Assembly: GCA_958296055.1 (NCBI GenBank)
Contig: CATQHS010000001.1
Span: forward strand, 225,917-289,916
From: an uncultured Acidimicrobiales bacterium
GTDB lineage: Bacteria; Actinomycetota; Acidimicrobiia; Acidimicrobiales; Aldehydirespiratoraceae
Length of the DNA: 64,000 nt
Direction of reading: 5' to 3'
Shown: one piece after another, positions 1 to 64,000 of the stretch
Layout of the letters: the number at the start of each line of letters is the position of its first letter
Position numbering within the stretch: position 1 is the first letter of the stretch
The notes under the pieces: generated by a model
The model's database searches: none
Seen by the model: only the letters and a program-made list of their open reading frames with translations
Told to the model about the DNA's origin: nothing
Program-made: the position numbers and the translations under genes

Positions 1-359
1 ACCCGTTGCGACAGCAGCTTGTCGCAGATCTGCGTGAGCTCGTCGGATGAGTCGCGGGTCTCCGTCATGATCGGCAGCACCCCCCTCGCCCCGAGGGCGT
101 TGGCGATGCCCCGGAGCACGGGCCCGATGAAGGGGTTGCTGAGGTCGGCCACGATCACGCCGACGACCCCGGTTCGGCCCCGCCGCAGGGCGGACGCCTG
201 AAGGTTCGCCCGGTATCCGAGCCTCTCCGCGGCCTCAAGAACCCGTATTCGGGTCGCAGTGCTCACCAGTGAACTCTTATCGGCGCTGAGCGCCCGAGAG
301 GCAGTCGACACGTCCACGCCAGCGGCGTCGGCCACTTCTCTCAACGTCACGCTTCCCAT
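1..359 (-). CDS. LacI-family transcriptional regulator, N-terminal part (the rest lies outside the window)
   Basis: Not in ORF track because it runs off the edge. Reverse translation from ATG at 359 gives MGSVTLREVADAAGVDVSTASRALS... (LacI/PurR HTH), then GVIVADLSNPF, the start of the sugar-binding fold. Confidence 0.85.
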   Translation of the reverse strand, partial: MGSVTLREVADAAGVDVSTASRALSADKSSLVSTATRIRVLEAAERLGYRANLQASALRRGRTGVVGVIVADLSNPFIGPVLRGIANALGARGVLPIMTETRDSSDELTQICDKLLSQR

Positions 360-494
360 GCCGACACCCTATATGAGACGACATCCACGGCTGAAGTTGG
401 AGCCTCCATAGCGGCGGCGGCTGGGCTCGGGCGGATCATACTCCGCCCGAGCCCAGCCCACGTCTCCTAAGACGCGATCACCGCAGAGGAATGA

Positions 495-51093: not shown

Positions 51094-51891
51094 TTACAGG
51101 GGCAGAGACCGGCCCGCCTCGCGCAGACGGCGGCGGCGGTGCTGAGCGTCGGGCATGACGGCGGCCACGATCCGCCAGAACTCGGGCGAGTGGCTCCTGA
51201 CCGCCAGATGGGCCAGCTCGTGCACCACTATGTAATCGATCAGCGCCGGCTCGAGCATCACAGCCCGCCAGTTGAATCGCAGGGTGCCGTCGGGGGCGCA
51301 ACTCCCCCACCGCTGGCGCTGGTCGCGGATCAGCACCCGGGGAATGGGGCTCCGGCCCAACCGGGGCTGCCAGCGACCGACGCAGGCCGGCAGCCGCTCG
51401 CCAGCCCGGCCCCGATACCACCCCACCACAGCTCGGCGGACCCGCTCTCGGCGCTCGTCGCCTTCGAGGAACTGAGGCACGGCGATGCGGAAGCGCCAGT
51501 GGTCGAAGCGGACCTCCGGCGAGCGGACCCCGCCAACAGAAGGCTCGACGATCAGACGGACGTTGCGGCCCAGGTAGGGCAGCGTCTCGCCGCTGACGAA
51601 CCGCCGGGGCGTCGGGGCCAGGCTCGAAACCGATCCGGCCGCTCCCACGGCCCCGCCAGCCTCAGCCAGGCGGGCCAGTATCCACGCCGCCCGTTTCGTG
51701 ACGATGGCCCGCACCTCGGCACCAGATGTTGCTGACGGCGCGGCCACCTGCACTCCCCCGCCGTCCACGGTGATCTGGACCGTCTTGTGCCGCCGCGGGC
51801 TGCGGCGGATCTCGTACTCGATGGTGGTGGCGCCGAAACGGACGGAGTCCCGCTCAGCCACCGACCCGGCCGTCACCACTCGACCGGCCAC
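51094..51891 (-). CDS. M48-like zinc metallopeptidase, DUF45/YgjP family
   Basis: HELAHL zinc motif, WGSC, and the IEYEIRRSPRRHKTVQITV N-terminal pattern. It lies directly downstream of hsdR, a common arrangement. Confidence 0.8.
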   Translation of the reverse strand: MAGRVVTAGSVAERDSVRFGATTIEYEIRRSPRRHKTVQITVDGGGVQVAAPSATSGAEVRAIVTKRAAWILARLAEAGGAVGAAGSVSSLAPTPRRFVSGETLPYLGRNVRLIVEPSVGGVRSPEVRFDHWRFRIAVPQFLEGDERRERVRRAVVGWYRGRAGERLPACVGRWQPRLGRSPIPRVLIRDQRQRWGSCAPDGTLRFNWRAVMLEPALIDYIVVHELAHLAVRSHSPEFWRIVAAVMPDAQHRRRRLREAGRSLPL

Positions 51892-51963
51892 CCAGTTGCC
51901 GCCACCCGGCCGGTCACCCGGACCGCCCGTTCGCTCACCACCCGGCCGTCACCAGCCCGCTCC

Positions 51964-54900
51964 TCACCGGCTGCTTCTCCGGCGGGCCAGCTCCACCACC
52001 CGGCCAGCCAGCTCGTCCAACTGCTCCTCGGTGTGGGCGCCCGCGGGCCTGAGCTGGCGCTTGACGTCCCGGCGCATCTGGCGCTGGACCTCCAGGTTCG
52101 ACTGCCAGTCCACGACGGCGCGATGGCGCTCCACCGCCGACTCGATCCTCAGAGCGAACCGCTTGGCCTCCTCGTCAAGACGCACCCGGCCTCCAGACCC
52201 GGCCCCAGCCTCCCCCTCCGAGAGCCCGGCCTCCCCCGCTCCGGCCGAACCGGCCGAACCGGTCGAAGAAGGCCCCGGCTCCTCCAGTCGCCTGTCGAGC
52301 AGCTCGTAGACGGCGAAGGCCAGCGGCGACAGGCCGTGCTCGGCGGCGAAGTCGTCGAGGCGCAGGATCTGCTGGGCCACCGCGGCCAGGCGGTGACAGG
52401 CCTCGGCCGAGTCGATCAGCCGGTTGCGCAGGTCCTCGATGACCCGGGCGAGCTGGTCCGAGAGCCGCTCGAAGAACGCCGGGTTCTCGCCCAAGCGCTC
52501 GTGGATCTGAGCCCGGATGGCGTGTTCCATCACCGAGGCCCTGGCCTCGTCGCCGGGCAGGCTGGCGATCTTCCGCTCGAAGTCGGCGTCGAGGATGGAT
52601 ATCGGCTTCATCATCTCCCGCACCCGGGCGCTGATGCGCTCATCGATCAGCTTCTTGACCTTCGCCCCGATCTCGGTCCAGTCGGCGGCGGCGTCCTCGC
52701 GCAGGAACTGGGCCCGGACGCAGGCCCGTATCTCGGTGAGGCGAGCCAGCCGGTCCCGGTAGTCCAAGGCCCGGGGGTCGGGCAGGAAGCGGTCCATGAG
52801 GATCGAGAACTGGCGGTAGTCGGCGTTGAACCGCTCGAAGAGATCGACCTTGAAGGCACCGTCGGTGGAGGCGTCGGGGGCGAAGACGGCCACGCACGCC
52901 CACGTGTCGCCGAAGTCGCGACCCCCGAACCAGGACTCGGCCGCGGCGGCGGCCGACTCGATGACCTCGGCCGGGTCCTCTTCCATCTCCCACATGGCCC
53001 CCTGGACATCCGACTGGTCGAAGGCGGACAGCACCTCCTCCAAGTCGCGGGAGACGCCGCAGTAGTCCACCACCAAGCCGAAGGTCTTCTCGGTGGCCAC
53101 GCCATCGAACACGTGGGAGAACCGGCGGTTCACCCGGGCGATGGCCTGGAGCAGCCCGTGCTCCCGCAACCCTCGGTCGAGGTAGAGCACCTGCTCCACC
53201 GGGGCGTCGAACCCGGTGAGCAGCATGTCCACCACCACCAGCACCTCGGGGTCGCCCTCGGGATCGACGAAGGCCTCGGTGACCAGGCTCTGGTTCAGCT
53301 CACGGGCCGTATTGAACTCGCGCCCGTCTTGGGGGGTGGTGGTGATGATCGGGAAGGCGCTCACCCCGAAGTTGATCAGGTGACCGGCGTAGCGCACCGC
53401 CGCGGCCCGGCTGGGGGCCACCACCTGGGCCTTGAACCCGTTGGGACGCACCTTGGCCTTGAAGTGCTCGGCGATGTCGAAGGCGATCATCTCAATCCGG
53501 CGCTCGGCCTCGGCCACGGTCTCCTTGTTCCCGTAGCGGCGGCGCAGCCGGGCCCGCACCTCCTCGGGCTGGTCGCTGAACAGGGCATCGAAGAGCTGGT
53601 CGAGGGTGTCGGGGCCTTCGACGGCCAGATCGGGGAGCCGGGCCTCGTAATAGATGGGCACAGTCGCCCCGTCGGCCACCGACTGGGGGATGGTGTAGGA
53701 GTCGATGAGGGGCCCGAACCGGCGCATGGTGCTGCGCCGAAACCCCTTGTCGATGGGGGTGCCGGTGAAGCCGAGCAGCGTGGCGTTGGGCAGCGCTTTG
53801 GACATGCGGGCCCCGAGCGTGCCGTACTGGGTGCGGTGGGCCTCGTCCACCATGACGATCACGTTCTCGGAGGGGTCGAGCACGTCCAGTTCCCCCTCGG
53901 GCGCGGTCAGGGCCTCCTCGAACTTCTGCACCGTCGTCATCACCGTGCGGCCCGCGCCGGTGGTGAGCAGTAGGCGCAGGTCGCCGGTGCTCGACGCCCG
54001 CTCGGGGGCGGGGAAGCCGCAGCGCTGGAAGGTGGCGGTGATCTGACGGTCGAGCTGGGTCCGGTCGGTCACCATCACGATGGTCGGGTTGTCGAGGCCG
54101 GGCTGGCGGCGCAGCTTGCCGGCCAGCCACAACATGGTCAGCGACTTGCCGGAGCCCTGGGTATGCCACACCACGCCGCCCCGCTCGGCGGGGGTGCGGC
54201 CCCTCAGGACCCGCTCCAGGGCGGCCCCGACGGCCCGATGCTGGTGGTAGCGGGGCAGCTTCTTCACCACTTTGCCCTGCTCGGGCTCGTATACGACGTG
54301 GTCGCGCATAACGTCGAGCAGAACGACCGGGTCCAGCAGCCCGACGATGAGCCGGTTCTGGCCCTCGGGCTCGACCCCAAAGCGCTGCCGCACCTCGTCC
54401 TCGGAGTAGGGCAGCACCGACTTCCACCCGACATAGGCATTCTCCGGCGCGCCGAGCCCGGCGAAGACGGCGTCGGTCCCGCAGTGGGCCACGCTCATCA
54501 GATTCCAGGCGAACAACTCGGGCGCACCCCGGCCGTGCCATTCCGGCGACGACTCCTGATAGCGCCGGAGTTGGTTCACCGCCTTGGTCTTCCACCGGTC
54601 GTGCAGCGCCAGCGACTTGGCTTCCATAACCACCAGCGGTATGCCGTTGACGAACAGCACCAAGTCGGGGATGACGGACCGCTCGTCGTCGTCGGGATCA
54701 CCGCGCCCGCTGCCGCTGAGGACCCGGAACTGGGTGGTGACCACGAAATCGTTGAGGCCGCTGTGGGGGTGGTCGAAATCGAAGAAGCGGACCGTGCGGG
54801 TCCGCCGCCCCTTGGGGGTGTCGGTGTCGAGGGGCATCCCGTAGGTGAGGTATTCGTGGACAATCTGGTTGCGGGCCATCCCGACCGCGTCGACATGCCC

Positions 54901-55116
54901 AAGGTCGAAGATCACCCGCTCGGCCTGGCTCTCAGTCATCCACTCGTTGAGCCGCAGCAGCGCCCGCGTCAGCCGACCCCGGAGCAGCACATCCCGTTCG
55001 TCCCCGCGCTCAGCCGCCAGGGCGTCCCGGTGGACATACGTCCATCCCAGCTTCTCCAGCAGCCGCCGGGCTGGTCCCTCAGCGTGGTCGAACTCGTTGA
55101 GCTTGGTGGAAGTCAT
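51964..55116 (-). CDS. hsdR: Type I restriction endonuclease subunit R
   Basis: 1050 aa with an N-terminal nuclease region (PDLVLFVNGIPLVVMEAK), SF2 helicase motifs (TQGSGKS, DEAH, TGTP) and a C-terminal domain. Confidence 0.95.
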   Translation of the reverse strand: MTSTKLNEFDHAEGPARRLLEKLGWTYVHRDALAAERGDERDVLLRGRLTRALLRLNEWMTESQAERVIFDLGHVDAVGMARNQIVHEYLTYGMPLDTDTPKGRRTRTVRFFDFDHPHSGLNDFVVTTQFRVLSGSGRGDPDDDERSVIPDLVLFVNGIPLVVMEAKSLALHDRWKTKAVNQLRRYQESSPEWHGRGAPELFAWNLMSVAHCGTDAVFAGLGAPENAYVGWKSVLPYSEDEVRQRFGVEPEGQNRLIVGLLDPVVLLDVMRDHVVYEPEQGKVVKKLPRYHQHRAVGAALERVLRGRTPAERGGVVWHTQGSGKSLTMLWLAGKLRRQPGLDNPTIVMVTDRTQLDRQITATFQRCGFPAPERASSTGDLRLLLTTGAGRTVMTTVQKFEEALTAPEGELDVLDPSENVIVMVDEAHRTQYGTLGARMSKALPNATLLGFTGTPIDKGFRRSTMRRFGPLIDSYTIPQSVADGATVPIYYEARLPDLAVEGPDTLDQLFDALFSDQPEEVRARLRRRYGNKETVAEAERRIEMIAFDIAEHFKAKVRPNGFKAQVVAPSRAAAVRYAGHLINFGVSAFPIITTTPQDGREFNTARELNQSLVTEAFVDPEGDPEVLVVVDMLLTGFDAPVEQVLYLDRGLREHGLLQAIARVNRRFSHVFDGVATEKTFGLVVDYCGVSRDLEEVLSAFDQSDVQGAMWEMEEDPAEVIESAAAAAESWFGGRDFGDTWACVAVFAPDASTDGAFKVDLFERFNADYRQFSILMDRFLPDPRALDYRDRLARLTEIRACVRAQFLREDAAADWTEIGAKVKKLIDERISARVREMMKPISILDADFERKIASLPGDEARASVMEHAIRAQIHERLGENPAFFERLSDQLARVIEDLRNRLIDSAEACHRLAAVAQQILRLDDFAAEHGLSPLAFAVYELLDRRLEEPGPSSTGSAGSAGAGEAGLSEGEAGAGSGGRVRLDEEAKRFALRIESAVERHRAVVDWQSNLEVQRQMRRDVKRQLRPAGAHTEEQLDELAGRVVELARRRSSR

Positions 55117-55530
55117 GAGGCTTGGATCAATTCCAATTCGGGTATTCCTTGGAAATCTCGGTCAGGAAGCAAAGCGGACTATTCAACAAAAGTGCCGTTA
55201 GCAGCAATCCACGCGTCCGCTTATGCGGTCTAAAGCTTTGATACCTAGCTAAAGCGTCGGAGCTATCCGACCGAGTCGATAGAATTAATTCAACCTCAAG
55301 CGATCCAGAAGAAGATGAACACTGCCGAAGCCTACTTAAAATTTGCTTCCAATTCAAAGAGTCGCCCTTTTGAAAATTATGGCAAATCAGATCATAAATC
55401 ATTAGACAAACCGCTCTCTGAATATGACCGCAAGTTGTTTGTAAATCAACTACCCTGTCCATACTAAGGTAAGGTCCCTTCAAATACTACAAGTAACTGA
55501 CTGGTCATCATGCTCCTATCGTTGAAGTAT

Positions 55531-56448
55531 TTATATTACAGGCGTTTCAAAATCTCCAACCGTGTGCCAGTCCGTACCATCCAAGTTTACTGGACAACCA
55601 GCAGCTTGAAGACGTTGTGCCAATTCCTGACGTCGTTGGGAAGTATTGTCAAGTCTTACAGTATGACGACCCGCAATATCGCTAAAAGGTCTTAGGACAC
55701 CAAGTTCTACAAGTATAGTACGATCTTCTGATTGACCCATTGCCATTCCTGCTTCAAACAATACATTAGGGCGAGCTTGACCACTTAATTCTATCTCATA
55801 TGTCAGTTCATTTTTTGATCTAAGATTTTCTCGAAGACGAGCCTCATCATCCGGTGTGAAGAGAACCAAAATGGCATGCGCTTCACTAAAGGCTGCGGTT
55901 AAAATTTCCCAAATATGGGGGCTAACTTTACCAGTCAGTTTAATAGCTTCTATCCATTCTAGCGGTTGAAGATCTATAGCCCTTAGAAAGTTGAATAGTT
56001 CATCTCTAGCTGATATATTTCTACCGTGTATTACAAATATTTTTTGAGTATTTTTGGCTGGCATAGGCAACATATTATTAGAGTCATAACGATCAATTTC
56101 ATATCCGGGTGGACCCAAAATAAAATCATCAGTAACATCTTTACCTTCCTTAGCTATAATCCAATCTATAGACGGGCCTGGCAATACATTTGACCATCTG
56201 CTTTGCTTGATATTTTCAGCCAGCCCATAGTAATTCTTAGAAGACTCTTTGGTAGTACTTATCCACATTCTTTCAATATCATCTAGCTGAATCGTCTTTC
56301 CATTAACTACTATTGATTCTCCACGACGATAAGGGGTAAGAACGCGCTCATTTAATCTGCCCTCAGTTAGATCGAGTTTAACTTCACCGTAAGATCTACT
56401 AGATTTCAAGCTTATACAAATATGATAGTACTTCACAATTATCTCCAT
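55531..56448 (-). CDS. TIR-like domain protein (PF10137 / CAP12-PycTIR type) with uncharacterised ~135-aa N-terminal domain
   Basis: The C-terminal half matches the family pattern: IFVIHGRN, HAILVLFTPDDEA, QARPNVLFEAGMAMG (candidate catalytic Glu) and LRPFSDIAGRHTV. The gene is AT-rich. Its ATG lies 2 nt after the hsdS stop. Confidence 0.75.
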   Translation of the reverse strand: MEIIVKYYHICISLKSSRSYGEVKLDLTEGRLNERVLTPYRRGESIVVNGKTIQLDDIERMWISTTKESSKNYYGLAENIKQSRWSNVLPGPSIDWIIAKEGKDVTDDFILGPPGYEIDRYDSNNMLPMPAKNTQKIFVIHGRNISARDELFNFLRAIDLQPLEWIEAIKLTGKVSPHIWEILTAAFSEAHAILVLFTPDDEARLRENLRSKNELTYEIELSGQARPNVLFEAGMAMGQSEDRTILVELGVLRPFSDIAGRHTVRLDNTSQRRQELAQRLQAAGCPVNLDGTDWHTVGDFETPVI

Positions 56449-56450
56449 AA

Positions 56451-57704
56451 TCAGCGGATAATTCCGGGAAGTAGCTGGTTAAGTAAGGAAGTTTTGAGAG
56501 AAATTATTGCGTTCTGCTCCTGTTTCATCCATACCAATGACTCTAAGATTGTACCAATTACTGACGTAATAATCTGCTGTTCCGGCAGAGTTGGGAGAGG
56601 AATTGGTAGAGTTGAATACTCCGAAGCATTAATGTTTGGTTGAGCGCCGACTCGTTTCATTGATGCAATCCAACGGCGATAATAACTCGAATGCGTGTAT
56701 AATGATACGAATTCTGGAAGTGCAATTTCAGGGTTGGGACGAAACCGAATCAGATAACCTGCATATACACAATGACCATCTTCAGATTGATAAAGGTACG
56801 TTCTCCCTACACTACCACTTCTAGCAAATAATAGATCACCCATACGCAGCTTATGCTCTGAATCATTTGATATCTTTACAGATCTAATTCCCTCAGTACG
56901 TAACCGTCCATCACCAGTTATGTCAGTGATCCGAACATATCGTGGTAAGATTGGGTCGAACGGACATGCTCGTAATCCAACACCGTATTTAGGTGGATCA
57001 CATATTTCTCCCAAGCTGACAACTTGCCAGTCCGCTGGAATAGTTCCTATACTCTGATATGTTCGCCGTTCGGTGTGCCAACCGGGGACACCACAAGTGA
57101 ATAGTGCATGTAGCATAGCATTCCGTAAATTCTTGGTGGCAATTATAACTGCTTCAGAGTGTCGAATAGCTTCGTCAATTGAATCCAATACGATTGCAAT
57201 ACTTGCTTGTTCTGAGAGTGGCGGAAGTAGTACCATACTTCTCTTCAAATGTGCGCTAGTAATAGAAGGTACAGCACTTACATTAGCTAACTGGGCTAGA
57301 TCAATAGATTCAAACCAAGCGTGAAGGAACCTTGTATCACACTTTTGGGTATCTGATACTGTAACGCCTATCATGTTATTATCGATAATAGTGGGCACCG
57401 TTAATGCTCTCTTCTTGTTGGTAGCTATAGCAGCCCCTACCTTGGGAAATACAATTGTACCAGGCGCAAAGACAGTTGCTTTGAGTTCTTCCACATCTTT
57501 CTCATCAACATAGTTGTTTGCGTATTGAATGTAAGTTTCGTTACCTTGCAGAGTCATATCAGAAACCTTGATGAATGGATACTCGCCACTACGTCGCCCC
57601 TGTCTGTTCATCGGGAATCCAGTACCATTTCGTACTTTTGCTACGTCTCCGATGCGCATAATCTGCCAACCATCGGGCACGGTTTCTATAGTTGGTCCAA
57701 CCAT
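56451..57704 (-). CDS. hsdS: Type I R-M specificity subunit (full length, two target-recognition domains)
   Basis: 417 aa with two TRDs separated by conserved helices (PPLSEQASIAIVLDSIDEAI and LPEQQIITSVIGTILESL). Very AT-rich relative to its surroundings. Confidence 0.9.
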   Translation of the reverse strand: MVGPTIETVPDGWQIMRIGDVAKVRNGTGFPMNRQGRRSGEYPFIKVSDMTLQGNETYIQYANNYVDEKDVEELKATVFAPGTIVFPKVGAAIATNKKRALTVPTIIDNNMIGVTVSDTQKCDTRFLHAWFESIDLAQLANVSAVPSITSAHLKRSMVLLPPLSEQASIAIVLDSIDEAIRHSEAVIIATKNLRNAMLHALFTCGVPGWHTERRTYQSIGTIPADWQVVSLGEICDPPKYGVGLRACPFDPILPRYVRITDITGDGRLRTEGIRSVKISNDSEHKLRMGDLLFARSGSVGRTYLYQSEDGHCVYAGYLIRFRPNPEIALPEFVSLYTHSSYYRRWIASMKRVGAQPNINASEYSTLPIPLPTLPEQQIITSVIGTILESLVWMKQEQNAIISLKTSLLNQLLPGIIR

Positions 57705-57710
57705 CTGATC

Positions 57711-59252
57711 TCACTCCTGGTCTCTGGAGAAGCCCATATTGGTCAGAAGCGCGTCCATCTTCGATACTGCTTCGTCTCGACGGTGCTCCGCCTCCCGTAA
57801 CTGGGCTAGAGCATCCTCGACGCTTAGCACCTCCACTGGTTCGGTTGTGTCAACGTAGCGGCTGATGTTCAGATTGAAACCGTTGTCGGCTATCTCCTCC
57901 AAATCAACTACATGCGCGAACCGCTCTGCCTCTTCGAAGGTCTGATACGCCTCGACGATCTTGGCGATGTGTTCGCGGTCTAGGAAGTTCTGCGCCTTGT
58001 CCTGGCGGAAGCATCCATCCTGGGCAGCGTTCACGAACAGCACCTTGCCCCGGCGGTCCGCCGGCTTGGCCCGGTTCAGCACGCAGATGGTCACCGGGAT
58101 GCTGGAACCGAAGAACAGGTTAGGGGCTAGGCCGATGATCGCCTCAAACAGATCGGCTTCCAAGATACCTTCGCGGATCTTGCCCTCGGCACCGCCGCGG
58201 AACAAGATGCCGTGGGGCATCACCACGCCCACCATGCCCTTGGAATTCGTCACCGCCAGCATGTGCATCAGGAAGGCGAGGTCGCCCTTGGTGCGGGGGG
58301 GGATGGCGCCATAGCGGTCAAAGCGGTGGTGGGGATCGTTAGGGGCGAAGTCGTGGCCCCAGTTCTTCAGGCTGAACGGCGGATTGGCGATCACCCGGTC
58401 ATAGGAGAGAAGCCGGTCCGTGGCCGGGTCCACCAGGCGCGGTTCGGCAATCACATCGCCAGCCTCCAGGCGGGCGGCCCGCAGGTCGTGCAGCAACAGA
58501 TTGAGTTTGCCCGCGGCCAGCGTACCCAGGTTGCGCTCTTGGCCGTGCAGCGCCAGGTTGCGGCGGTCGCCGCCCTGCTCGTGTACATATTGCGCGGTGT
58601 AGATGAGCATCCCGCCGGACCCGGCCGTGGGATCGCAGATCCGCATCCCCTCACGGGGCTGCAACAGTTCGACGATGAGACGAACCACCGAGCGGGGCGT
58701 GTAGAACTCCCCGCCCTTCTTGCCAGCGTCGTCGGCGAACTGGTTGATCAAGTACTCGTAGGCATCGCCCAGCACGTTGCCGGCACCGTCCCCGCCGTCG
58801 CTCAGATTGTCATCGCGCAGGTTCAGGGCGCTGAAGTGGGTGAGCAGGCTGCGGATGATGCGCTCCCGGTTGGCCGGGCTGCCCAGCTTCGACTCATCGT
58901 TCCAGTTGGTGCCCGACAGCACACCGTCGAGCCTCGGAGCGTTGGCCGTCTCCACTTCGTGGCCAGCGATGTTGAGGGCGTCGCCGGGGTTCCTCGGGGC
59001 TCCGGCCAGCACGGACCAGCGACCCGACTCGGGGACGAAAAACTCGTGCTCGTCGGGGTCCGACAACGCCACCTCGCGGGGGACGCCGGAGGCCACCGCG
59101 CTCTCCACCTCCTCGTCGAACCGGTCCGAGAGCCGCTTCAGGAAAAGGATGGAGAAGATGTAGTTCTTGTAGTCGGCCGCGTCGATCTGGCCGCGCAGGA
59201 TGTCGGCGGCTTGCCAAAGCTTCGACTGGAGCTCCTGGCTGGTGAGCGGCAC
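57711..59252 (-). CDS. hsdM: Type I R-M DNA methyltransferase subunit M
   Basis: HsdM N-terminal domain (LWQAADILRGQIDAADYKNYIFSILFLKRLSD), motif I DPTAGSGGML and motif IV NPPF. Confidence 0.95.
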   Translation of the reverse strand: MPLTSQELQSKLWQAADILRGQIDAADYKNYIFSILFLKRLSDRFDEEVESAVASGVPREVALSDPDEHEFFVPESGRWSVLAGAPRNPGDALNIAGHEVETANAPRLDGVLSGTNWNDESKLGSPANRERIIRSLLTHFSALNLRDDNLSDGGDGAGNVLGDAYEYLINQFADDAGKKGGEFYTPRSVVRLIVELLQPREGMRICDPTAGSGGMLIYTAQYVHEQGGDRRNLALHGQERNLGTLAAGKLNLLLHDLRAARLEAGDVIAEPRLVDPATDRLLSYDRVIANPPFSLKNWGHDFAPNDPHHRFDRYGAIPPRTKGDLAFLMHMLAVTNSKGMVGVVMPHGILFRGGAEGKIREGILEADLFEAIIGLAPNLFFGSSIPVTICVLNRAKPADRRGKVLFVNAAQDGCFRQDKAQNFLDREHIAKIVEAYQTFEEAERFAHVVDLEEIADNGFNLNISRYVDTTEPVEVLSVEDALAQLREAEHRRDEAVSKMDALLTNMGFSRDQE

Positions 59253-59255
59253 GTT

Positions 59256-59870
59256 TCAACCTCGGGTTTCTTGCAGGGCCTTGTAGCCGATTTCGTGGAT
59301 GAGTGAGTCGCGAAGCACCTCACGCCGGAGCTGGGCGGCCTTGACCGCAGCCCCGTACGCCGCCTCCGATGCCTCCACCAACTCCGCCGCTAGATGCAGC
59401 TCGCGGGCGGAAGGCATCGGAACCTCAACCTCTCGGAGGCTATTAGCCGATAGCGACGTGATGGTGGAACTCACCGTCAGCCGCCGGGCCAACTGGGCCC
59501 GCCCGTGGGCCGAGGAGAGGAACCACCAGAGCCAGTGCCCCAGGCCCGAGTCCGGGCGCTTCGGCCGGACCACCAGCAGCGTCACCCCAGCCACCGTCCT
59601 GGACACGCCCGGCGGCACCAGCGCAACCTTGGTTGAGTCGGCCCGGGCCGTCACCAGCACATCGTGGGGCCGGAGCAGGTGGCGCTCGGTGCGGACGTTG
59701 CGGTCGACCTCGATTTCCCGGAGGCCGTCGAGATTGAGCCAGCCGCCGCCTTCCGGCAGGTTGCTGCTCTCCACCAGTCGCAGCGCCCACTCCCCCGCCC
59801 GAGCCCCGGCCCCGCGCCCCGCCCGACCCAGCCCCTGGTAGACATCCGCCACGTCAGCCACCTGGTTCAT
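59256..59870 (-). CDS. hsdS: Half-size Type I specificity subunit (single TRD plus conserved helix)
   Basis: 204 aa and GC-rich, with HsdS-like architecture (one TRD, then PMPSARELHLAAELVEASEAAYGAAVKAAQLRREVL). It ends 3 nt before the hsdM start. Confidence 0.7.
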   Translation of the reverse strand: MNQVADVADVYQGLGRAGRGAGARAGEWALRLVESSNLPEGGGWLNLDGLREIEVDRNVRTERHLLRPHDVLVTARADSTKVALVPPGVSRTVAGVTLLVVRPKRPDSGLGHWLWWFLSSAHGRAQLARRLTVSSTITSLSANSLREVEVPMPSARELHLAAELVEASEAAYGAAVKAAQLRREVLRDSLIHEIGYKALQETRG

Positions 59871-60028
59871 TACGATGACCTTACAGTGCGATCATAAAAA
59901 AATCAACACTTAGAAGTGCTAGTTAGTGCACGGTCCACCTTCAGGTCTATCAGGCGAGGTAAGCTGTGCCGTTGGCGATCTCAACTGTGGAGATCCAAAC
60001 GAATCATCATCAAAAAGGAGCATTTTCA

Positions 60029-61009
60029 ATGGCTGACCTGATTGTCCAGTTCGCCAAGGCAAAGTCAAACGTAGAAGCGTCGGAGGAAGACAAATCCAAT
60101 GCCGCGGAAGCTCATAAGGCTGTGCGCGCCTGCCTCGAACATGAAGAAACGTTGAGATCCTACGGTATTGACACGGTACTAATTGGCAGTTACAAACGCC
60201 ATGTGGCCATCCGTCAAGTCAAAGATGTAGATGTGTTGTCCAAGCTTCCCCAGTTACCAGCCGATGTAGAGCCAAGAACGCTTTTGGACTATTTCTTAAA
60301 AGTCCTGAAGAACGCCTATGGGTCTGATCGAGTAGAGGCTCAGAGTCGTTCGGTCAAGATTGAGTTCCCTGACTTTGACCTTGCAGTGGATGTAGTACCT
60401 GCTCGTCCTTGCCAAAGTTCTAACTACATTGAGATTCCTGATCGCGTTGAAGGCTGGCAGGAGACTAACCCAGAACGGCTTACAGAGCTAACAACAGCGA
60501 TGAACAACTCTTACGACGACGAGTACGTACCATTAGTCAAGCTGATTCGTCAGACGCGTCGACACAATCTCAACAAGCGTCCAGGTGGTTTTTACTTTGA
60601 AATCCTCACGTATCATGCAGCAGCCAATGGTCTAGACCGTAGAAGCACTGGTGCGCTTTTTACTTCCGCCTTACGCGACATCGCAGAACAGCTCAGATTA
60701 GCTGCCGCGGGCCATGAAGTGCAAGATCCGACGATGCCAGGTGCTAGTATTTCAATTCGAGTCACCGATGTTCAAATGCAAACAGCCGTAACAAAGTTTA
60801 CTGACCTCGCATCCAAGGCTGAAGCGGCCCTTGAGGCTGATATTTGTCCGGCAGCAAAAGCATTTCAAAAGATCTTCGGCCGCAACGACGATAACGAATT
60901 GGTCTTTGAAATGCCAGCAGCATGCAATGAGGACGGAACCTCTAAGTCTCTGATCGCCATCTCACCTGGAGATCGCACCATCCCAGCAGGCAATCGCCGT
61001 TTCGCATGA
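60029..61009 (+). CDS. CBASS cGAS/DncV-like nucleotidyltransferase (CD-NTase, SMODS domain)
   Basis: Pol-beta NTase motifs GSYKRHVAI...VKDVDVL and the third acidic residue in FDLAVDVVPA. RBS AAAAGGAG lies upstream of ATG 60029. There is a 4-nt overlap with cap2. The C-terminus ends ...RRFA. Confidence 0.8.
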   Translation: MADLIVQFAKAKSNVEASEEDKSNAAEAHKAVRACLEHEETLRSYGIDTVLIGSYKRHVAIRQVKDVDVLSKLPQLPADVEPRTLLDYFLKVLKNAYGSDRVEAQSRSVKIEFPDFDLAVDVVPARPCQSSNYIEIPDRVEGWQETNPERLTELTTAMNNSYDDEYVPLVKLIRQTRRHNLNKRPGGFYFEILTYHAAANGLDRRSTGALFTSALRDIAEQLRLAAAGHEVQDPTMPGASISIRVTDVQMQTAVTKFTDLASKAEAALEADICPAAKAFQKIFGRNDDNELVFEMPAACNEDGTSKSLIAISPGDRTIPAGNRRFA

Positions 61010-62490
61010 TGAGTATCCTGAGCGACAGTGTAGCAGCGGAGCGTGAGGCTTTCATTGAAGGACTCTGCACTCGTGGGTTCAAATTACTTAATGACTGTCG
61101 AACTCTCCTGGGTGCTATCAACATTAACGGGCAACCCATAGAGCATGAAATCGCCCTTACCGCAGAGTTTCCCATTACAAAGCCTCGGGTATCAGTCCCA
61201 AATGGGGAGGGTAGCCTATCTTGGCACAGGGAGTCTGATGGAACTTTATGTTTATGGTCTGATGACGAGGCATCTGATCTTCCATGGAGCGACGCTGCTG
61301 CCATGATTGATCGTATCTCTCAATGGCACGCCAAGGATGCCGCAGGCTGGTCGAATGATCCTCCCGATCTCGACTTGGAAAGGTATTGGACATCCGGCTG
61401 TAATCCTATATTAGTAGTTCACCCAGATCTCGAACCTCTCACTGGCAAAAAGTGCAGAGCCAGAAAATATCTAAAGAAGTCATTCGAGGTGTGGGATGTT
61501 GGGCCAGGAAAAGTCTACAAGAACCGTAAACGTTGGGCAGGAGTATCCGTAGTCAACGCGGGAGAGTTGAAGCAGCCCGTCCGTAATTTTGATGAACTCG
61601 CGGATCGGCTCGGAGCCGAAGAGTCTGAGGAGCTAAGTGCTGCAATTGAAAACGGCGATGTCAGTGTAGTGGTGGTACGCTATCGCAGACAAGAACACGA
61701 AGCAGCCGTGAGCCTTATCGCAGAAGATCAAAATCCTAATCGCCTCACGGCTGTTAGAACTGCTCACACGGGCGAGTCAACCTTACGCCTACGAGCCGGA
61801 CTAGACGCCAACGTGCTTGCAAATAAGAGGATCGCACTAGTCGGGCTCGGGGCGGTCGGATCTCTGTTGGCAGAGATGCTCGTCCGTTCAGGTGTGGGCG
61901 CGATGACACTCATAGACGGCGATATTATTAGACCTGGTAATTGTATTAGGCATGTAGCCACTTTAAACGATGTTGGTATCAATAAAGCTGAAGTCGTCAA
62001 AGATAAGATCATAACCGCGGGACTGATTTCCAAGGAGGACGCTAATGGCAAGCTCACGGTACAGCCCCAGATGTTACAAGACGCAGTAACCACTGAAAAG
62101 ATCTTCAACGAACATGACCTTATTATTGACGCCACTGGTGACAATCCAGTAACGGCGTTGGTATGTACCGCTAGCCGGATTTTAAACAGGCCCTTGATCA
62201 CGGTCTGCTTACAACGAGGGGGAACAGTCGCACGCGTTGACCGCTTTCCGCTGCTCCACGGCGAAACCCACAAAGACGCACTACCTCCGGCTGAATCCCA
62301 TATCGAGCTTCGTGAGGGGGGGTGCGGAGACCCTATATCCCCTGCACCGCCATGGGCCTGTGCGGCTGCCGCAGCCCGAGCCGCGGGAATGGCAGCCGAT
62401 CTGCTCGTTGGACGTGATCTGTACCCTCCAACCGTCATCGACGAGTTGATCAAGTTGCCAGATAGCTTGCCAACGGCAAGCAGTCTGTGA
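61006..62490 (+). CDS. cap2: CBASS Cap2 (fused E2-like and E1/ThiF-like ubiquitin-transferase-like enzyme)
   Basis: N-terminal E2-like Cys context (HRESDGTLCLW). The ThiF Rossmann motif is LVGLGAVGSLLAEMLVRSGVGAMTLIDGD. The C-terminal Cys region is GGCGDPISP. Confidence 0.8.
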   Translation: MMSILSDSVAAEREAFIEGLCTRGFKLLNDCRTLLGAININGQPIEHEIALTAEFPITKPRVSVPNGEGSLSWHRESDGTLCLWSDDEASDLPWSDAAAMIDRISQWHAKDAAGWSNDPPDLDLERYWTSGCNPILVVHPDLEPLTGKKCRARKYLKKSFEVWDVGPGKVYKNRKRWAGVSVVNAGELKQPVRNFDELADRLGAEESEELSAAIENGDVSVVVVRYRRQEHEAAVSLIAEDQNPNRLTAVRTAHTGESTLRLRAGLDANVLANKRIALVGLGAVGSLLAEMLVRSGVGAMTLIDGDIIRPGNCIRHVATLNDVGINKAEVVKDKIITAGLISKEDANGKLTVQPQMLQDAVTTEKIFNEHDLIIDATGDNPVTALVCTASRILNRPLITVCLQRGGTVARVDRFPLLHGETHKDALPPAESHIELREGGCGDPISPAPPWACAAAAARAAGMAADLLVGRDLYPPTVIDELIKLPDSLPTASSL

Positions 62491-62978
62491 TGAAGTACCA
62501 AACCCGTCAAATCGTCGTGGAGCCCTCTAGCTGGTTGGAAGCTACAACAACAGCTTCACAAACTAAGTTAGAAATTGGTGGCATCTTGGCGGGCTGGCGT
62601 CATGACACAGGTATTTATATATCGAAATTTGTCGAAGTGCCAGACATGCGCGCGACTCGGGCCACCTACCTGCGACGACATGCATTCGCCTCTGAACGCT
62701 TAAAGAGTCTAGTCGAAACTCTGCCGGAAGGTTCACCAGTCGGTTATGTCGGTGAGTGGCACACCCATCCAGAGAATCAAGGTCCTAGCCGAACCGACCG
62801 TAACCAACTAAAGCGTATTTCAAAGAAAGTTAAAGGGGATATAGCTCTCATCGTACTCGTTTATGATCAGAATACTGGCCAATGGATGCCCGCAGGGATG
62901 TGTGCTAACTCTGGCGTAGTGCATACAGCCGTCATCAGGATCGATAACTCATTGGCAATGCAGATAAAATCAGTATAA
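62487..62978 (+). CDS. cap3: CBASS Cap3 (JAB/JAMM isopeptidase)
   Basis: JAMM motif EIGG...GEWHTHPENQGPSRTD (HxH-x7-S-xx-D), overlapping the cap2 stop. Confidence 0.8.
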   Translation: MMKYQTRQIVVEPSSWLEATTTASQTKLEIGGILAGWRHDTGIYISKFVEVPDMRATRATYLRRHAFASERLKSLVETLPEGSPVGYVGEWHTHPENQGPSRTDRNQLKRISKKVKGDIALIVLVYDQNTGQWMPAGMCANSGVVHTAVIRIDNSLAMQIKSV

Positions 62979-62992
62979 TCTATGTAATCCAT

Positions 62993-64000
62993 ATGACCGA
63001 TATCTCTAGCCATAGTCAAAGCGCTTCGCGGATTGCGGGCGACTACTATCAACACCTCATTGCCTGGAATGAAGCACTTGAAGCCCTGCGATCAGACAAC
63101 GATGTACTCGCTGTTACTGTTGAGCATCCAGATGCTGGAAACGTAGACGACATCGTTGTGCACAGGCGCACCGGTTCAACCCTCTTCATTCAAGTCAAAC
63201 ATGCAGTAGATGCCAGAACACCTGTTGGATACAAATGGTTACTCGGTTTAAGATCTTCAAACTCCAGAGCAACAAGCCTCCTGCAAAAATTCTATAGAAG
63301 TTGGATTCATCTTTCAAAATCGGACGAACGCCCCGAACTCCGGCTTATAACAGACCGAGAAATTGATCCTAATGACCCGGTTATGAGCCGAATTGATCGC
63401 ATGACAGGTTTACTAGTGCCTAATATCCGCCACGGCCGTGCGGCCGAAGGCCGAGCCCAATGGGCACAACACTTAGAAATTGACGAATGTGAACTCTTAG
63501 AATTTCTAGAGAATCTACGATTTGAGACCGGTCGACCAGTGAGAGCAGAAGAGCAACGCGCCAGGACGCTGATGTGGGCTATGGGTTTTAACAACGACCA
63601 ACGGGCTATAGACGCAGCTATCGGATTAGTGAGAGAGTGGGTTCTGCTAAGAGAGCGCCAACTCCAACCCGATATACTTCATAATTGGGCACGAAACCAC
63701 ATCGGACAGCAAACCGACCAAGGTGCAGTTGTCATCATAGATGCTATCGATTATGACCCTCACCCGGAAGACGCCGATGAACACATCTGCTTCGTTGACG
63801 ACTATCTAGGAAACGAGGCTTCCGAGAGGCGACAACTTCGCGACCCAACCCAATGGGACCGAATTGGTCAAGAGATTACACAAGCCTCAGATAGATTGCG
63901 CAATCGCGGCGTACGGCGTGTCATAGCCCGTGGAGCAATGCGCTTACCAGCCTGGTTTACTGTTGGCGCAGCTTTTCGCCATGTTCGTGGCTTTGAGATA
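62993..64000 (+). CDS. CBASS effector, Cap4-like (DUF4297 PD-(D/E)xK nuclease N-domain; probable SAVED sensor domain begins near window end); 3' end outside the window
   Basis: Absent from the ORF track because no stop occurs before the window end. The frame is open from ATG 62993 for 336 codons. The sequence MTDISSHSQSASRIAGDYYQHLIAWNEALEAL...VTVEHPDAGNVDDIVVH...LFIQVKH resembles the DUF4297 nuclease motif. Confidence 0.65.
   Translation, partial: MTDISSHSQSASRIAGDYYQHLIAWNEALEALRSDNDVLAVTVEHPDAGNVDDIVVHRRTGSTLFIQVKHAVDARTPVGYKWLLGLRSSNSRATSLLQKFYRSWIHLSKSDERPELRLITDREIDPNDPVMSRIDRMTGLLVPNIRHGRAAEGRAQWAQHLEIDECELLEFLENLRFETGRPVRAEEQRARTLMWAMGFNNDQRAIDAAIGLVREWVLLRERQLQPDILHNWARNHIGQQTDQGAVVIIDAIDYDPHPEDADEHICFVDDYLGNEASERRQLRDPTQWDRIGQEITQASDRLRNRGVRRVIARGAMRLPAWFTVGAAFRHVRGFEI

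Follow-up and report, generated by a model that had tools for sequence, protein, structure and literature searches.

A Type I restriction-modification operon with a conserved half-size hsdS and an AT-rich cassette bay that is probably exchanged recurrently

How does a GC-rich Type I restriction-modification (R-M) operon come to hold AT-rich genes at its centre, and what does a second, half-size hsdS do at its head? Both questions are raised by positions 51094-59906 (minus strand) of the window, the whole 64,000-nt stretch of DNA analysed, which are one such operon. Pfam and PADLOC searches place its genes in the order and at the coordinates on the minus strand that an earlier, sequence-only reading had given them. 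Half-hsdS comes first (59256-59870; 204 aa; PADLOC Specificity_I, E = 5e-10), and its stop codon lies 3 nt from the GTG of hsdM, the Type I N6-adenine methyltransferase subunit (57711-59252; Pfam N6_Mtase, E = 3e-94, and HsdM_N). Full-length hsdS follows (56451-57704; 417 aa, two TRDs, two Pfam Methylase_S stretches; PADLOC Specificity_I, E = 5e-49), then a TIR-like gene (55531-56448; PF10137 at 87.5 bits, cut-off 24.7). A non-coding-looking stretch of about 410 bp (55117-55530) separates the latter from hsdR, the restriction/translocase subunit (51964-55116; Pfam HSDR_N, SWI2_SNF2, ResIII, T1R_D3-like and T1RH-like_C; TIGR00348, E = 3.5e-143). A YgjP-like metallopeptidase gene (51094-51891; PF01863, E = 9.4e-52) completes the unit, all genes being on the minus strand.

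Half-hsdS, hsdM, hsdR and the YgjP-like gene have a GC content of 0.64-0.72, compared with 0.43 for hsdS and 0.39 for the TIR-like gene. GC3 goes from 0.84-0.92 in these flanking genes down to 0.33 and 0.26, respectively, and takes intermediate values (0.65-0.70) in the last ~90 codons of hsdM. The composition switch that had been placed at the 3' end of hsdM and at the hsdR start is thus borne out, far beyond chance by GC and GC3, and homology backs its boundaries independently. By blastn, the closest relative, L001, shows DNA similarity at 59860-57698 and 55133-51945 and nothing alignable between. Comparison with relatives locates breakpoints at 57698 and 55133 relative to L001, and at 57664, 57188, 55548 and 55137 relative to L081, L082 and L088. 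They fall where hsdM stops and hsdS starts, in the conserved central part of hsdS, and some 20 nt before the hsdR ATG. The segment without homology to L001 (55134-57697, assigned to neither strand) constitutes a variable AT-rich cargo bay.

The comparison set consists of 88 related loci, mostly from sponge-symbiont MAGs: 80 from genomes and eight from metagenomes (L081-L088). The operon family is common in sponge-associated Acidimicrobiia and Chloroflexota. Related loci have in common a chassis of leaderless promoter, half-S and hsdM on one side of the bay and hsdR and YgjP on the other; the YgjP-like gene lies 3' of hsdR in nearly every locus and is syntenic in L001-L076. The bay itself extends from the hsdM stop codon to ~20 nt before the hsdR start and is hypervariable, containing TA pairs, a TIR-like gene (16/73), OLD ATPase, DUF3644, DUF6414, AbiJ-like, DUF4917/SIR2-like and MNT/HepT genes and PIN pairs. 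Bay GC is lower than core GC in all 72 loci that have both hsdM and hsdR, with a mean gap of 7.8 points. All nine close relatives, whose hsdM is 90-94% and whose hsdR is 87-88% identical to the genes here, have a bay GC of 0.42-0.45 and a core GC of 0.64-0.72. The AT-rich exchangeable cassette pattern is real and recurs in sponge-associated bacteria; it varies on an arrangement that has been described before.

The contents of the bay have a history apart from that of the flanks, one that goes back much further, and they differ between closest relatives. L001 is 92% identical in hsdM and 88% in hsdR, but a different AT-rich cassette fills its bay: a 226-aa half hsdS with an AAA_15/OLD-TOPRIM ATPase of the OLD family. 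Across the same genome pairs (Nei-Gojobori), dS is 0.26-0.36 for half-S, 0.38-0.49 for hsdM and 0.22-0.33 for hsdR, against 1.6-2.1 for hsdS and 0.94-1.46 for the TIR-like gene, a 3-7-fold excess that faster evolution or a compositional bias of the Nei-Gojobori method could partly explain. Together with the different cassette in L001, this excess speaks for cassette exchange, with recombination taking place in conserved hsd sequence. Recombination footprints are also present in relatives, as hsdR 5' stubs (L002, L009, L047, L052) and as stacked cassettes; L047 carries two, in the order hsdS, OLD ATPase, hsdR stub, S fragment, TIR, hsdR. A history of the hsdS/TIR block distinct from that of hsdM/hsdR is consequently upheld by discordant dS, the L001 cassette and the stubs. 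By sliding identity, the hsdM 3' ends of relatives do not cluster by cassette type, so recombination inside hsdM lacks direct demonstration.

The best homologues of the full-length hsdS are only 49-71% identical, many having just one TRD in common with it, and comparison with L081, L082 and L088 shows a swap of TRD1. Co-inheritance of both specificity genes with hsdM and hsdR, the case that the sequence-only reading had set against its own, is found for half-S and not for the full hsdS.

The ~410 bp between the TIR-like gene and hsdR had been taken for an AT-rich spacer. Its position stands, but tblastn shows that it is no mere spacer: 55117-55530 is the pseudogene relic of a two-gene module, a protein without a Pfam match plus a PIN protein. 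The first relic (55241-55483, minus strand) corresponds to the 5' third of a 244-300-aa gene, matching residues 8-90 of the L085, L086 and L001 proteins (35% identity, E = 2e-11); this protein family has no Pfam match, and in relatives its gene is paired with a PIN gene. The second (55119-55220, minus strand) is what is left of a PIN (VapC-like) gene, its final 34 codons, in a different frame from the first relic, and matches residues 101-134 of the L085 PIN protein (62% identity, E = 9e-10). It contains an in-frame stop, and its own stop codon overlaps the hsdR ATG. An intact PIN pair lies directly upstream of hsdR in L006, L008, L015, L027, L039 and L046.

Taken together, the locus is probably a conserved chassis whose AT-rich bay, carrying specificity and a linked effector, is exchanged by recombination, with half-S likeliest to be an accessory subunit. 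A GC-rich, host-like chassis stands on both sides of a hypervariable bay, occupied here by a two-TRD hsdS, a TIR-like single-gene defence candidate (PDC-S35) and the decayed no-Pfam/PIN module. Homologous recombination would replace whole bays or parts of bays, anchored in the hsdM 3' end/hsdS 5' end, the conserved hsdS helices and the hsdR 5' end. By a single exchange step a lineage could then switch both its restriction specificity and a linked second-line effector. From what is known of these families, HsdM2-HsdS would methylate an asymmetric bipartite site, and addition of HsdR would lead to restriction of unmodified DNA. The TIR-like protein, with an invariant Glu232, may be an NAD+-consuming abortive-infection effector working autonomously or, like PrrC, once the R-M complex is disabled.

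Precedents exist for such cargo. DarTG2 is placed in an hsdS-hsdR interval, an M48 peptidase lies downstream, and the site has been termed a potential recombination hotspot (PMC12255303); TgvAB is found inside a Type I R-M cluster (PMC11411939); and work on guilt-by-embedding places PrrC almost exclusively in Type I R-M (10.1101/2024.01.29.577857). The TIR-like gene here occupies the same hsdS-hsdR slot as PrrC and DarTG2.

Half-S is a conserved, unannotated core gene under purifying selection. Its protein, comprised of one TRD and a long C-terminal helix, has no Pfam match, and none of its 647 homologues is named. It adjoins hsdM in most related loci (43-86% identity), is conserved over its whole length across phyla, TRD included, and has a dN/dS of 0.20-0.31; the earlier description of it as retained does not fit these values. 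Profile searches match it to HsdS (5ybb/3okg, E = 2.5e-6) and Esub1 (E = 8.5e-4), Foldseek gives Esub1 (8vsr, E = 1.2e-6) as the best match, and hhalign aligns it with TRD2 of the family's HsdS at a probability of 95.7%. Such an S-fold protein would be capable of forming homodimers and be made together with HsdM. Judged by comparison with other systems, it most likely serves the methylase/restriction complex as a constant accessory subunit, after the pattern of the staphylococcal hsdS_short-hsdM-hsdS_long arrangement. In Staphylococcus xylosus a conserved hsdS_short accompanies a variable hsdS_long and is needed for its correct methylation (PMC10030836). The analogy is architectural only, since half-S and hsdS_short show no sequence similarity (hhalign probability 0.25%). 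In addition, half-S is absent from ~18% of related loci that keep hsdM, hsdS and hsdR and is thus dispensable, whereas the staphylococcal short subunit is not.

The candidate promoter upstream of half-S, of the leaderless sigma-A/sigma-70 type (59878-59906, minus strand), has exactly the sequence first reported: a -35 TTGATT (59906-59901), 17 nt, and a -10 TAAGGT (59883-59878) ending 7 nt before the half-S ATG at 59870. The layout TTGnnn-N16-19-TAnnnT, in most cases with 6-7 nt left to the start codon, recurs across phyla in 45 of 65 half-S loci. Inverted half-sites, CAC-N6-GTG (59907-59918, minus strand), abut the -35 and may be an operator or recognition site. Half-S could accordingly be an S-fold autoregulator rather than an enzyme subunit, its homodimer binding this element and so setting operon expression, as C proteins or RptR do. 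This is unlikely, but several observations are consistent with it. YAC-N6-GT(G/A) stands at the matching position in most half-S promoters and abuts the -35 across phyla, amid intergenic sequence that cannot otherwise be aligned; a palindromic bipartite element is the form expected for a half-S homodimer; and conservation along the whole of half-S fits a conserved operator. Half-S is also first in its operon, as is RptR in an EPEC island (PMC12255303), and the protein it matches best in structure, Esub1, forms a homodimer that has been suggested to be transcription-factor-like and showed no clear binding to HsdM (PMC11754733). Against this, the CAC/GTG positions carry 0.4-0.9 bit, a modest information content, non-palindromic variants such as ACA...GCA and CAC...GTA occur in several subgroups, and the element may simply belong to the promoter. 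In the 14 loci without half-S, YAC-N6-GT(G/A) is absent upstream of hsdM, and the whole promoter is gone too.

The sequence-only reading itself, a single splice of a foreign AT-rich specificity-plus-effector cassette into a GC-rich operon with half-hsdS, leaving one M/R core with two specificities, for an asymmetric site through the full S and for a palindromic bipartite one through a half-S homodimer, now appears quite improbable. It accounts for the sharp composition boundaries and the discordant cassette history. However, every close relative (9/9) has an AT-rich bay and every related locus a bay of lower GC than its core, which argues against one splice into a previously complete system with half-S only; the one-off insertion is not borne out, and cassette exchange is a lineage-wide, recurrent process. 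A donor of the AT-rich alleles was not found; the closest hsdS and TIR-like homologues all come from the same lineage and context. AT-richness would then be a standing property of an allele pool circulating in the lineage rather than the mark of a single recent import. As for the two specificities, half-S does have an S-subunit fold with a dimerisation-type helix, the Esub1 homodimer as its closest structure and close translational coupling to hsdM, and truncated half-S proteins of EcoDXXI, EcoR124I and NgoAV are active as dimers on palindromic sites (cited in PMC10030836). Half-S as the source of a second specificity is nevertheless less likely than an accessory role. Its TRD is conserved across phyla, where true specificity subunits diversify, and the gene is missing from a share of otherwise intact loci. 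In the only studied analogue, the short-S system of S. xylosus, hsdS_long depends on the short subunit, and the only motif reported after expression in E. coli was the expected one (PMC10030836).

The TIR-like gene probably starts, to judge from its homologues, which begin there, at the GTG at 56436, giving a protein of 301 aa. The protein matches PF10137 (E = 8.6e-25) and the PADLOC candidate PDC-S35 (E = 3.6e-21), and consists of an unmatched ~85 aa N-terminal domain, a variable linker, the PF10137 TIR domain and a conserved C-terminal tail. Glu232 is invariant within the motif NVLFEAGMAMG among 38 homologues. The AF2 model (pLDDT 80.8) gives TIR-STING 9lmr as its best Foldseek match (E = 1.7e-3). 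Homologues fill the hsdS-hsdR slot in 16/73 loci and in L081-L088; others, in L089 and on actinobacterial plasmids, lack any hsd genes, which speaks against a need for coupling to the R-M complex.

That the TIR-like protein is instead an effector, or an extra effector, of a neighbouring CBASS, activated by a cyclic oligonucleotide and in the R-M operon by accident, is disfavoured and very improbable. The TIR domain of CBASS (CAP12) and Pycsar effectors is that of PF10137, a CD-NTase/E1-E2/JAB operon on the opposite strand starts 96 bp from half-S, and CBASS abuts R-M also in L028, L073, L082 and L088. This CBASS, however, has its own effector ORF from 62994, with weak Cap4-nuclease and SAVED matches and a syntenic 484-aa SAVED protein in relatives; the loci with a TIR-like gene in the slot are mostly without nearby CBASS; and the N-terminal domain of the TIR-like protein matches no SAVED, STING or cNMP-binding family. 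The CD-NTase gene of the neighbouring CBASS spans 59966-61009.

Finally, although chimeric joins occur in metagenome-derived genomes and the GC step here is extreme, an artefactual join of reads from a low-GC and a high-GC organism has a negligible probability, as independent assemblies from other samples show the same gene order and GC step in at least nine contigs (L001, which is a complete MAG chromosome, and L081-L088, from several samples), both junctions keep the reading frames in tight coupling, and the stop codon of the PIN relic overlaps the hsdR start codon.

A Type I restriction-modification (R-M) operon is carried on the minus strand, its elements placed by ORF listing and domain searches. 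The first cistron, at 59256-59870, encodes a 204-aa HsdS-like protein with a single TRD (half-S) that has no Pfam match and is recognised by PADLOC Specificity_I at E = 5e-10. Next comes hsdM (57711-59252), with N6_Mtase (PF02384, E = 3e-94) and HsdM N-terminal (PF12161, E = 1e-21) domains and a TIGR00497 score of 228 bits, slightly below the 242.75 cut-off of that model. The full hsdS (56451-57704) has two Methylase_S stretches by Pfam, matches Specificity_I over its full length (residues 13-410), and shows two TRDs with conserved central and distal regions in the family alignment. It is followed by a TIR-like gene (55531-56448; PF10137, 87.5 bits against a cut-off of 24.7), by 414 bp without a called gene (55117-55530), and by hsdR (51964-55116; TIGR00348, E = 3.5e-143, 478.6 bits against a cut-off of 284.55), whose HSDR_N, SWI2_SNF2/ResIII, T1R_D3-like and T1RH-like_C domains represent the nuclease, SF2 translocase and C-terminal domain. 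A YgjP-like peptidase gene (51094-51891; PF01863, E = 9.4e-52) lies beyond, again on the minus strand. Genes are tightly packed, with 3 nt from the half-S stop to the hsdM GTG, 6 nt from the hsdM stop to the hsdS ATG, and 2 nt from the hsdS stop to the first ATG of the TIR-like ORF. Since TIR-like homologues begin four codons downstream of that ATG, the GTG at 56436 is the likelier start. Searches for tRNA and Rfam elements found none. With HsdM, a two-TRD HsdS, and HsdR all present, the locus is at gene level a Type I R-M system, for which bipartite m6A methylation and ATP-dependent restriction are predicted.

Against a genome background of about 0.72 GC, half-S and hsdM each have a GC3 of 0.84 and hsdR one of 0.92; the value drops to 0.33 for hsdS and 0.26 for the TIR-like gene, and the last ~90 hsdM codons are intermediate (0.65-0.70). 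The composition switch that the sequence-only reading had placed at the hsdM 3' end and the hsdR start is borne out by these GC3 values. A milder dip, to a GC of 0.57-0.64, is also seen at positions 1-4000 of the window.

An HsdM search restricted to one genome per species yielded 80 related loci, nearly all in MAGs of Chloroflexota (Dehalococcoidia/SAR202, Caldilineaceae) and Acidimicrobiia that live with sponges. The top match is L001, a Candidatus Aldehydirespiratoraceae chromosome. Eight further contigs (L081-L088), retrieved by searching for exact copies of the proteins closest to the TIR-like and hsdS products, have core genes 84-94% identical to those of the window and, where the contig is long enough, the order half-S, hsdM, hsdS, TIR-like, hsdR, YgjP. 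By tblastn mapping, the layout common to the related loci is half-S, hsdM, a variable interval of 0.9-7 kb (here termed the bay), hsdR and YgjP. In 72 of the 72 loci having both hsdM and hsdR, the bay has a lower GC than the hsd genes beside it, by 7.8 points on average (range 2-26). In L081-L088 bay GC is 0.42-0.45 between cores at 0.64-0.72; the AT-rich bay is thus lineage-wide rather than peculiar to the window genome, and is not an assembly artefact.

The edges of the bay are sharp. DNA homology between the window and L001 spans 59860-57698 (89%) and 55133-51945 (90%) with none between, and the L001 bay carries an hsdS of 226 aa with a single TRD, together with an AAA_15/OLD-TOPRIM ATPase of 652 aa. 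In comparison with L081, L082, and L088, homology ends at 57664, slightly inside hsdS, restarts at 57188 in the hsdS central conserved region, and continues at 75% identity as far as 55548, taking in TRD2 and the TIR-like gene; the first TRD is unrelated to theirs, and the ~410 bp after 55548 are missing in all three. Comparison of hsdR 5' ends among relatives, which had been proposed as a check on breakpoints, shows homology resuming at 55133 (L001) and 55137 (L081, L082, L088). By the Nei-Gojobori method, for the window against five close relatives, dS is 0.26-0.36 in half-S, 0.38-0.49 in hsdM and 0.22-0.33 in hsdR (dN/dS 0.20-0.31, 0.06-0.12 and 0.19-0.28, respectively), and 1.6-2.1 in hsdS and 0.94-1.46 in the TIR-like gene (dN/dS 0.14-0.25 and 0.11-0.24). 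Bay alleles are therefore several-fold more diverged than their flanks in the same genome pairs, a signature of recombination in conserved flanks. The breakpoints at 57698 and 55133, the dS step and the different L001 cassette all support replacement of the cassette by recombination in conserved hsd sequence as the probable mode of change. The companion claim, insertion of a single foreign cassette, does not fit a low-GC bay in all 72 loci and is recast as recurrent turnover of a pool of AT-rich alleles.

Duplicated 5' stubs of hsdR are present in the bays of L002 (14688-14801), L009 (14269-14382), L047 (15485-15706) and L052 (14203-14352), and resemble traces left by earlier recombination or relocation of cassettes. 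The L047 bay contains two tandem cassettes, in the order hsdS, OLD ATPase, hsdR stub, hsdS fragment, TIR-like, hsdR. Sliding identity along the hsdM 3' end did not group the sequences by cassette type. No donor of the AT-rich alleles was found among the nearest hsdS and TIR-like relatives, which all belong to the same lineage and context, and plasmid and viral matches cover the TIR domain only, at 40-59% identity. A shufflon or inverton between the two S genes can be set aside: no repeats link 59256-59870 with 56451-57704, the two genes differ by 27 GC points, and a recombinase domain is absent among the ten ORFs tested in 51094-62978.

Reassortment of TRDs and half-S dimers are classical themes of Type I systems, as in EcoR124I, EcoDXXI and NgoAV, and in M.AhdI with its M2S2 form. 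The first three, EcoR124I, EcoDXXI and NgoAV, are cited in PMC10030836. The exchange of TRD1 relative to L081, L082 and L088, in which the central region, TRD2 and the TIR-like gene stay homologous, is of this kind, and many hsdS database matches share one TRD only. Unlike in classical reassortment, the exchange here also moves non-hsd cargo genes, and the conserved half-S upstream of hsdM stays outside the shuffling and shares no repeats with hsdS.

The stretch of 414 bp that separates the TIR-like gene from hsdR, first taken as a plain AT-rich spacer of about 410 bp, turned out to hold the decayed remnants of two genes. At 55483-55241 (-) lies a relic of residues 8-90 of a 244-300-aa family without Pfam match (35% identity, E = 2e-11). 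In another frame, 55220-55119 (-) corresponds to the C-terminal 34 residues of a PIN-domain protein (62% identity, E = 9e-10), with an internal stop and a terminal TGA that overlaps the hsdR ATG. Other loci have the intact pair, a protein of about 300 aa and a PIN protein of ~140 aa, directly upstream of hsdR, and an internal deletion of roughly 0.9 kb explains the 414-bp stretch. That it is instead a remnant of the C-terminal extension of the ~415-aa long-form TIR-like proteins was rejected, as tblastn with 40 long forms gave no match beyond the TIR gene. A no-Pfam-match gene with a PIN gene and an hsdR stub is also found ~3 kb upstream of the operon in Acidimicrobiia relatives (stubs at L001 6585-6751, L085 1582-1725 and L086 2928-3035), and it likewise resembles a trace of earlier cassette recombination or relocation.

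Bay contents were surveyed by clustering 308 bay ORFs and annotating representatives, and they vary by position. The hsdM-hsdS gap takes small toxin-antitoxin-like pairs (DUF4160 + DUF2442, HicB-like, Phd + PIN), present in most Chloroflexota loci (bays of L003-L076, e.g. L018 11543-12110, L006 11600-12267) and absent from the window and its close relatives; these pairs recall the vapBC modules said to lie between hsdM and hsdS in Mycobacterium tuberculosis. After hsdS, single genes rotate, most commonly the TIR-like family (16 of 73 loci) and otherwise OLD-family ATPases, DUF3644, DUF6414, AbiJ-like, DUF4917/SIR2-like, trypsin-like protease or DUF3800 genes. The site directly before hsdR is occupied by MNT + HepT or by the pair of no-Pfam-match and PIN proteins. 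Half-size hsdS genes are seen in the bays of L001, L017, L054 and L058. In the window the occupant is a non-hsd gene, the TIR-like gene, on the same strand between hsdS (ending at 56451) and hsdR (starting at 55116). This is the known 'embedded defence gene' pattern of Type I R-M, and anti-phage activity is predicted. A fixed enzymatic chassis with a bay delimited by recombination, where the specificity subunit is exchanged along with an abortive-infection-type gene, offers a clean natural example of modular defence evolution. The steps in GC3 (0.9 to 0.3) and in dS are large enough for allele turnover to be measured directly in populations.

The TIR-like protein and its homologues, in all 38 sequences compared, begin with an N-terminal ~85-aa domain, which a variable linker connects to the TIR domain, and end in a conserved C-terminal tail. 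Glu232, which from family knowledge we take to be the catalytic Glu, is invariant (38/38) within the motif NVLFEAGMAMG. PADLOC PDC-S35 models match the whole protein (best E = 3.6e-21, residues 22-290); a full-text literature search found no paper naming PDC-S35, apparently only a predicted system, and recurrent context evidence is now given for this TIR-like defence candidate. Among PDB entries the AlphaFold model (pLDDT 80.8) best matches the TIR domain of a TIR-STING CBASS effector (E = 1.7e-3); SEFIR, SPARTA and SARM1 TIR domains come next, with Foldseek alignments covering the TIR part only. As in CAP12/PycTIR effectors, the PF10137 TIR domain scores above the Pfam threshold. Unlike them, the protein has no SAVED, STING or cyclic-nucleotide-binding sensor domain; residues 1-135 gave no significant Pfam match. 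TIR-domain relatives at 40-59% identity occur on actinobacterial plasmids, annotated 'nucleotide-binding protein'. We infer an autonomous, NAD+-directed abortive-infection effector that would travel with hsdS. About half of the TIR-like matches listed carry an extra C-terminal extension of ~100-120 aa, the window protein being a short form; the long forms include P0130 and 55 other homologues of ~400-436 aa, and also those of L010, L012, L030, L047, L054, L058 and L090, and their extension has a faint Mrr_N-like (winged-helix) match (E = 0.039).

Coupling of this effector to the R-M complex is putative. The PrrC anticodon nuclease of the EcoprrI Type Ic locus serves as the model for an effector set off by inhibition of the R-M complex, and PrrC-like guarding by the TIR-like protein would be a possible but unsupported analogy. 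Homologues also occur outside hsd loci: at L089 6214-8938 a TIR-like homologue (57% identity) stands with HicB/DUF2442 genes and a 278-aa no-Pfam-match gene, hsd genes are absent, and housekeeping genes lie on both sides, so that this locus looks like bay cargo surviving without the R-M chassis. A role as effector of the neighbouring CBASS operon is disfavoured. That operon, on the plus strand at 59966-64000, is a complete-looking type II CBASS, with a CD-NTase (59966-61009) divergent from half-S at a distance of 96 bp, a Cap2-like E1/E2 protein (61006-62490), a Cap3-like JAB protein (62487-62978) and its own effector ORF, which starts at ~62994, runs off the window, and has weak Cap4-nuclease and SAVED matches. 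The last ORF has its syntenic counterpart, a SAVED protein of 484 aa, in L082 and L088, where the CBASS neighbour also occurs at 65-77% aa identity; a more distant CBASS adjoins the R-M genes in L028 and L073. In most loci, homologues of the TIR-like gene fill the hsd slot with no CBASS nearby, so an obligate link to a cyclase does not hold. The CBASS genes, with a GC of ~0.49 (GC3 0.46-0.50), form a third compositional class of the island.

The half-S belongs to a family of 647 database members, none of which has a Pfam domain or a name, and is conserved over its entire length, TRD included. Its profile matches the HsdS chains 5ybb and 3okg (E = 2.5e-6) and Esub1 (E = 8.5e-4), and hhalign places it on TRD2 and the start of the distal helix of the family HsdS (probability 95.7%). 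The AlphaFold model, of moderate confidence (pLDDT 65), has a TRD-like head together with a helix of 50 residues, with Esub1 as the best structural match (E = 1.2e-6, TM 0.56-0.61). Esub1 of Streptococcus pyogenes (PDB 8VSQ/8VSR) is a ~200-aa half-S homodimer with one TRD-like head, a dimerisation helix and an insertion helix, encoded away from hsd genes, for which clear HsdM binding was not seen (PMC11754733). The half-S, in contrast, heads an hsd operon, and identity is only 18-20%. A tblastn search of plasmids with half-S returned only weak S-subunit matches.

An intact half-S adjoins hsdM in most related loci; copies are degraded in six, 14 have none, and the gene is absent from ~18% of loci. 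Its dN/dS of 0.20-0.31 indicates purifying selection. Unlike in the M.AhdI-type M2S2 arrangement, it is not the sole S subunit, as a full two-TRD hsdS is encoded in the same operon. By comparative genomics half-S is a conserved, sometimes dispensable core gene, co-inherited with hsdM and hsdR. Judged by the co-inheritance that the sequence-only reading had named as counting against it, half-S does not act as a specificity allele would. Its natural loss hints that half-S may not be strictly required for methylation here.

A close parallel in design is the staphylococcal hsdRSMS operon, in which a fully conserved 191-aa hsdS_short precedes hsdM and a variable hsdS_long follows; hsdS_short is required for correct methylation by hsdS_long, and in E. 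coli hsdRSMS gave the expected motif only, with no additional motif reported (PMC10030836). In both operons hsdM is directly preceded by a conserved, short, single-TRD-like S gene of ~200 aa and directly followed by a variable S gene with two TRDs. They differ in that hsdR lies upstream in staphylococci but downstream here, no cargo genes are embedded in the staphylococcal operon (hsdR, hsdS_short, hsdM, hsdS_long), and the short S gene is dispensed with in ~18% of loci here and fully conserved there. The half-S profile against hsdS_short of S. equorum pC2014-2, in a single-target hhalign comparison of limited sensitivity, gave a probability of 0.25% and E = 0.24, and the HsdM proteins are 35% identical. 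The resemblance is thus one of design, not of demonstrable descent. Taken with hsdS_short, the half-S family points to a possibly wider, poorly understood class of two-S Type I systems.

In Actinobacteria leaderless transcripts are common, and a leaderless promoter for the whole unit (TTGATT-N17-TAAGGT at 59878-59906 on the minus strand) had been proposed upstream of half-S. Its coordinates are exact, and the layout is kept among relatives: TTGnnn-N16-19-TAnnnT precedes half-S in 45 of 65 loci, with a 17-nt spacer in 27 of the 45 and a -10 that stops 6 or 7 nt short of the start codon in 28, and the remaining upstream intergenic sequence is not alignable across phyla. This conservation supports the proposed promoter. 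A simple promoter scan did not list it because TAAGGT fits TATAAT at only three of six positions. In most half-S promoters of different phyla (L001-L088) YAC-N6-GT(G/A) is also found, placed so that its GTG directly adjoins the -35; the window has the CAC at 59918-59916 and the GTG at 59909-59907. A further CAC(G/T)G lies directly upstream of the -10 (59884-59888 in the window). These inverted half-sites may be a candidate operator or methylation site. Where half-S is missing (14 loci) the whole promoter is missing too.

A half-S homodimer would be expected to recognise a bipartite element of palindromic form. That it does so is a weak reading, set against an information content of 0.4-0.9 bit only at the CAC/GTG positions and the non-palindromic form of the element in some subgroups. 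Fuller still, and improbable in our estimation, is the proposal that half-S represents a new S-fold class whose homodimer, with or without HsdM, would read the CAC-N6-GTG at the -35 and autoregulate the operon by binding or methylation. If true, a TRD would have been recruited as operon controller, and the bay would supply the restriction specificity and a changing second-line effector.

Other Type I loci also carry embedded cargo. PrrC is almost exclusively Type I-embedded, and a systematic guilt-by-embedding survey gave rise to the PADLOC PDC candidates (10.1101/2024.01.29.577857); TgvAB lies within the Type I R-M locus of Vibrio cholerae VPI-2 (PMC11411939). As with PrrC and TgvAB, a second-line defence gene here sits inside the hsd operon beside hsdS/hsdR; unlike them it is TIR-like (PF10137) and not an anticodon nuclease or GmrSD-like enzyme. 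That defence genes can be embedded between hsdS and hsdR is already established, as is TRD reassortment, and current views are not overturned. What is new is the combination of a conserved, unannotated half-S first cistron, a family-wide leaderless promoter and an extreme GC/dS discontinuity.

The EPEC RRDM island has the order rptR - hsdM - hsdS - darTG2 - hsdR - M48 peptidase, and its hsdS-hsdR site was called a likely recombination hotspot (PMC12255303). Shared with the present operon are a small first gene before hsdM, an unrelated defence module embedded in the hsdS-hsdR interval, and, beyond hsdR, a metallopeptidase gene, likened by position (YgjP-like, PF01863, here and M48 there). The first gene there encodes the 9-kDa repressor RptR and here an S-fold protein, the cargo is DarTG2 there and a TIR-like gene here, and the compositional mosaic present here is not reported for EPEC RRDM (PMC12255303). 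The YgjP-like metallopeptidase gene follows hsdR in nearly all related loci, often overlapping it or a few bases away. After it, at 49365-50897 (-), is a 510-aa ORF with an HNH-like motif (...CHAHHIVPW...NRHHHHIH...), whose syntenic genes in L081 and L082 are annotated PF02720 (DUF222).
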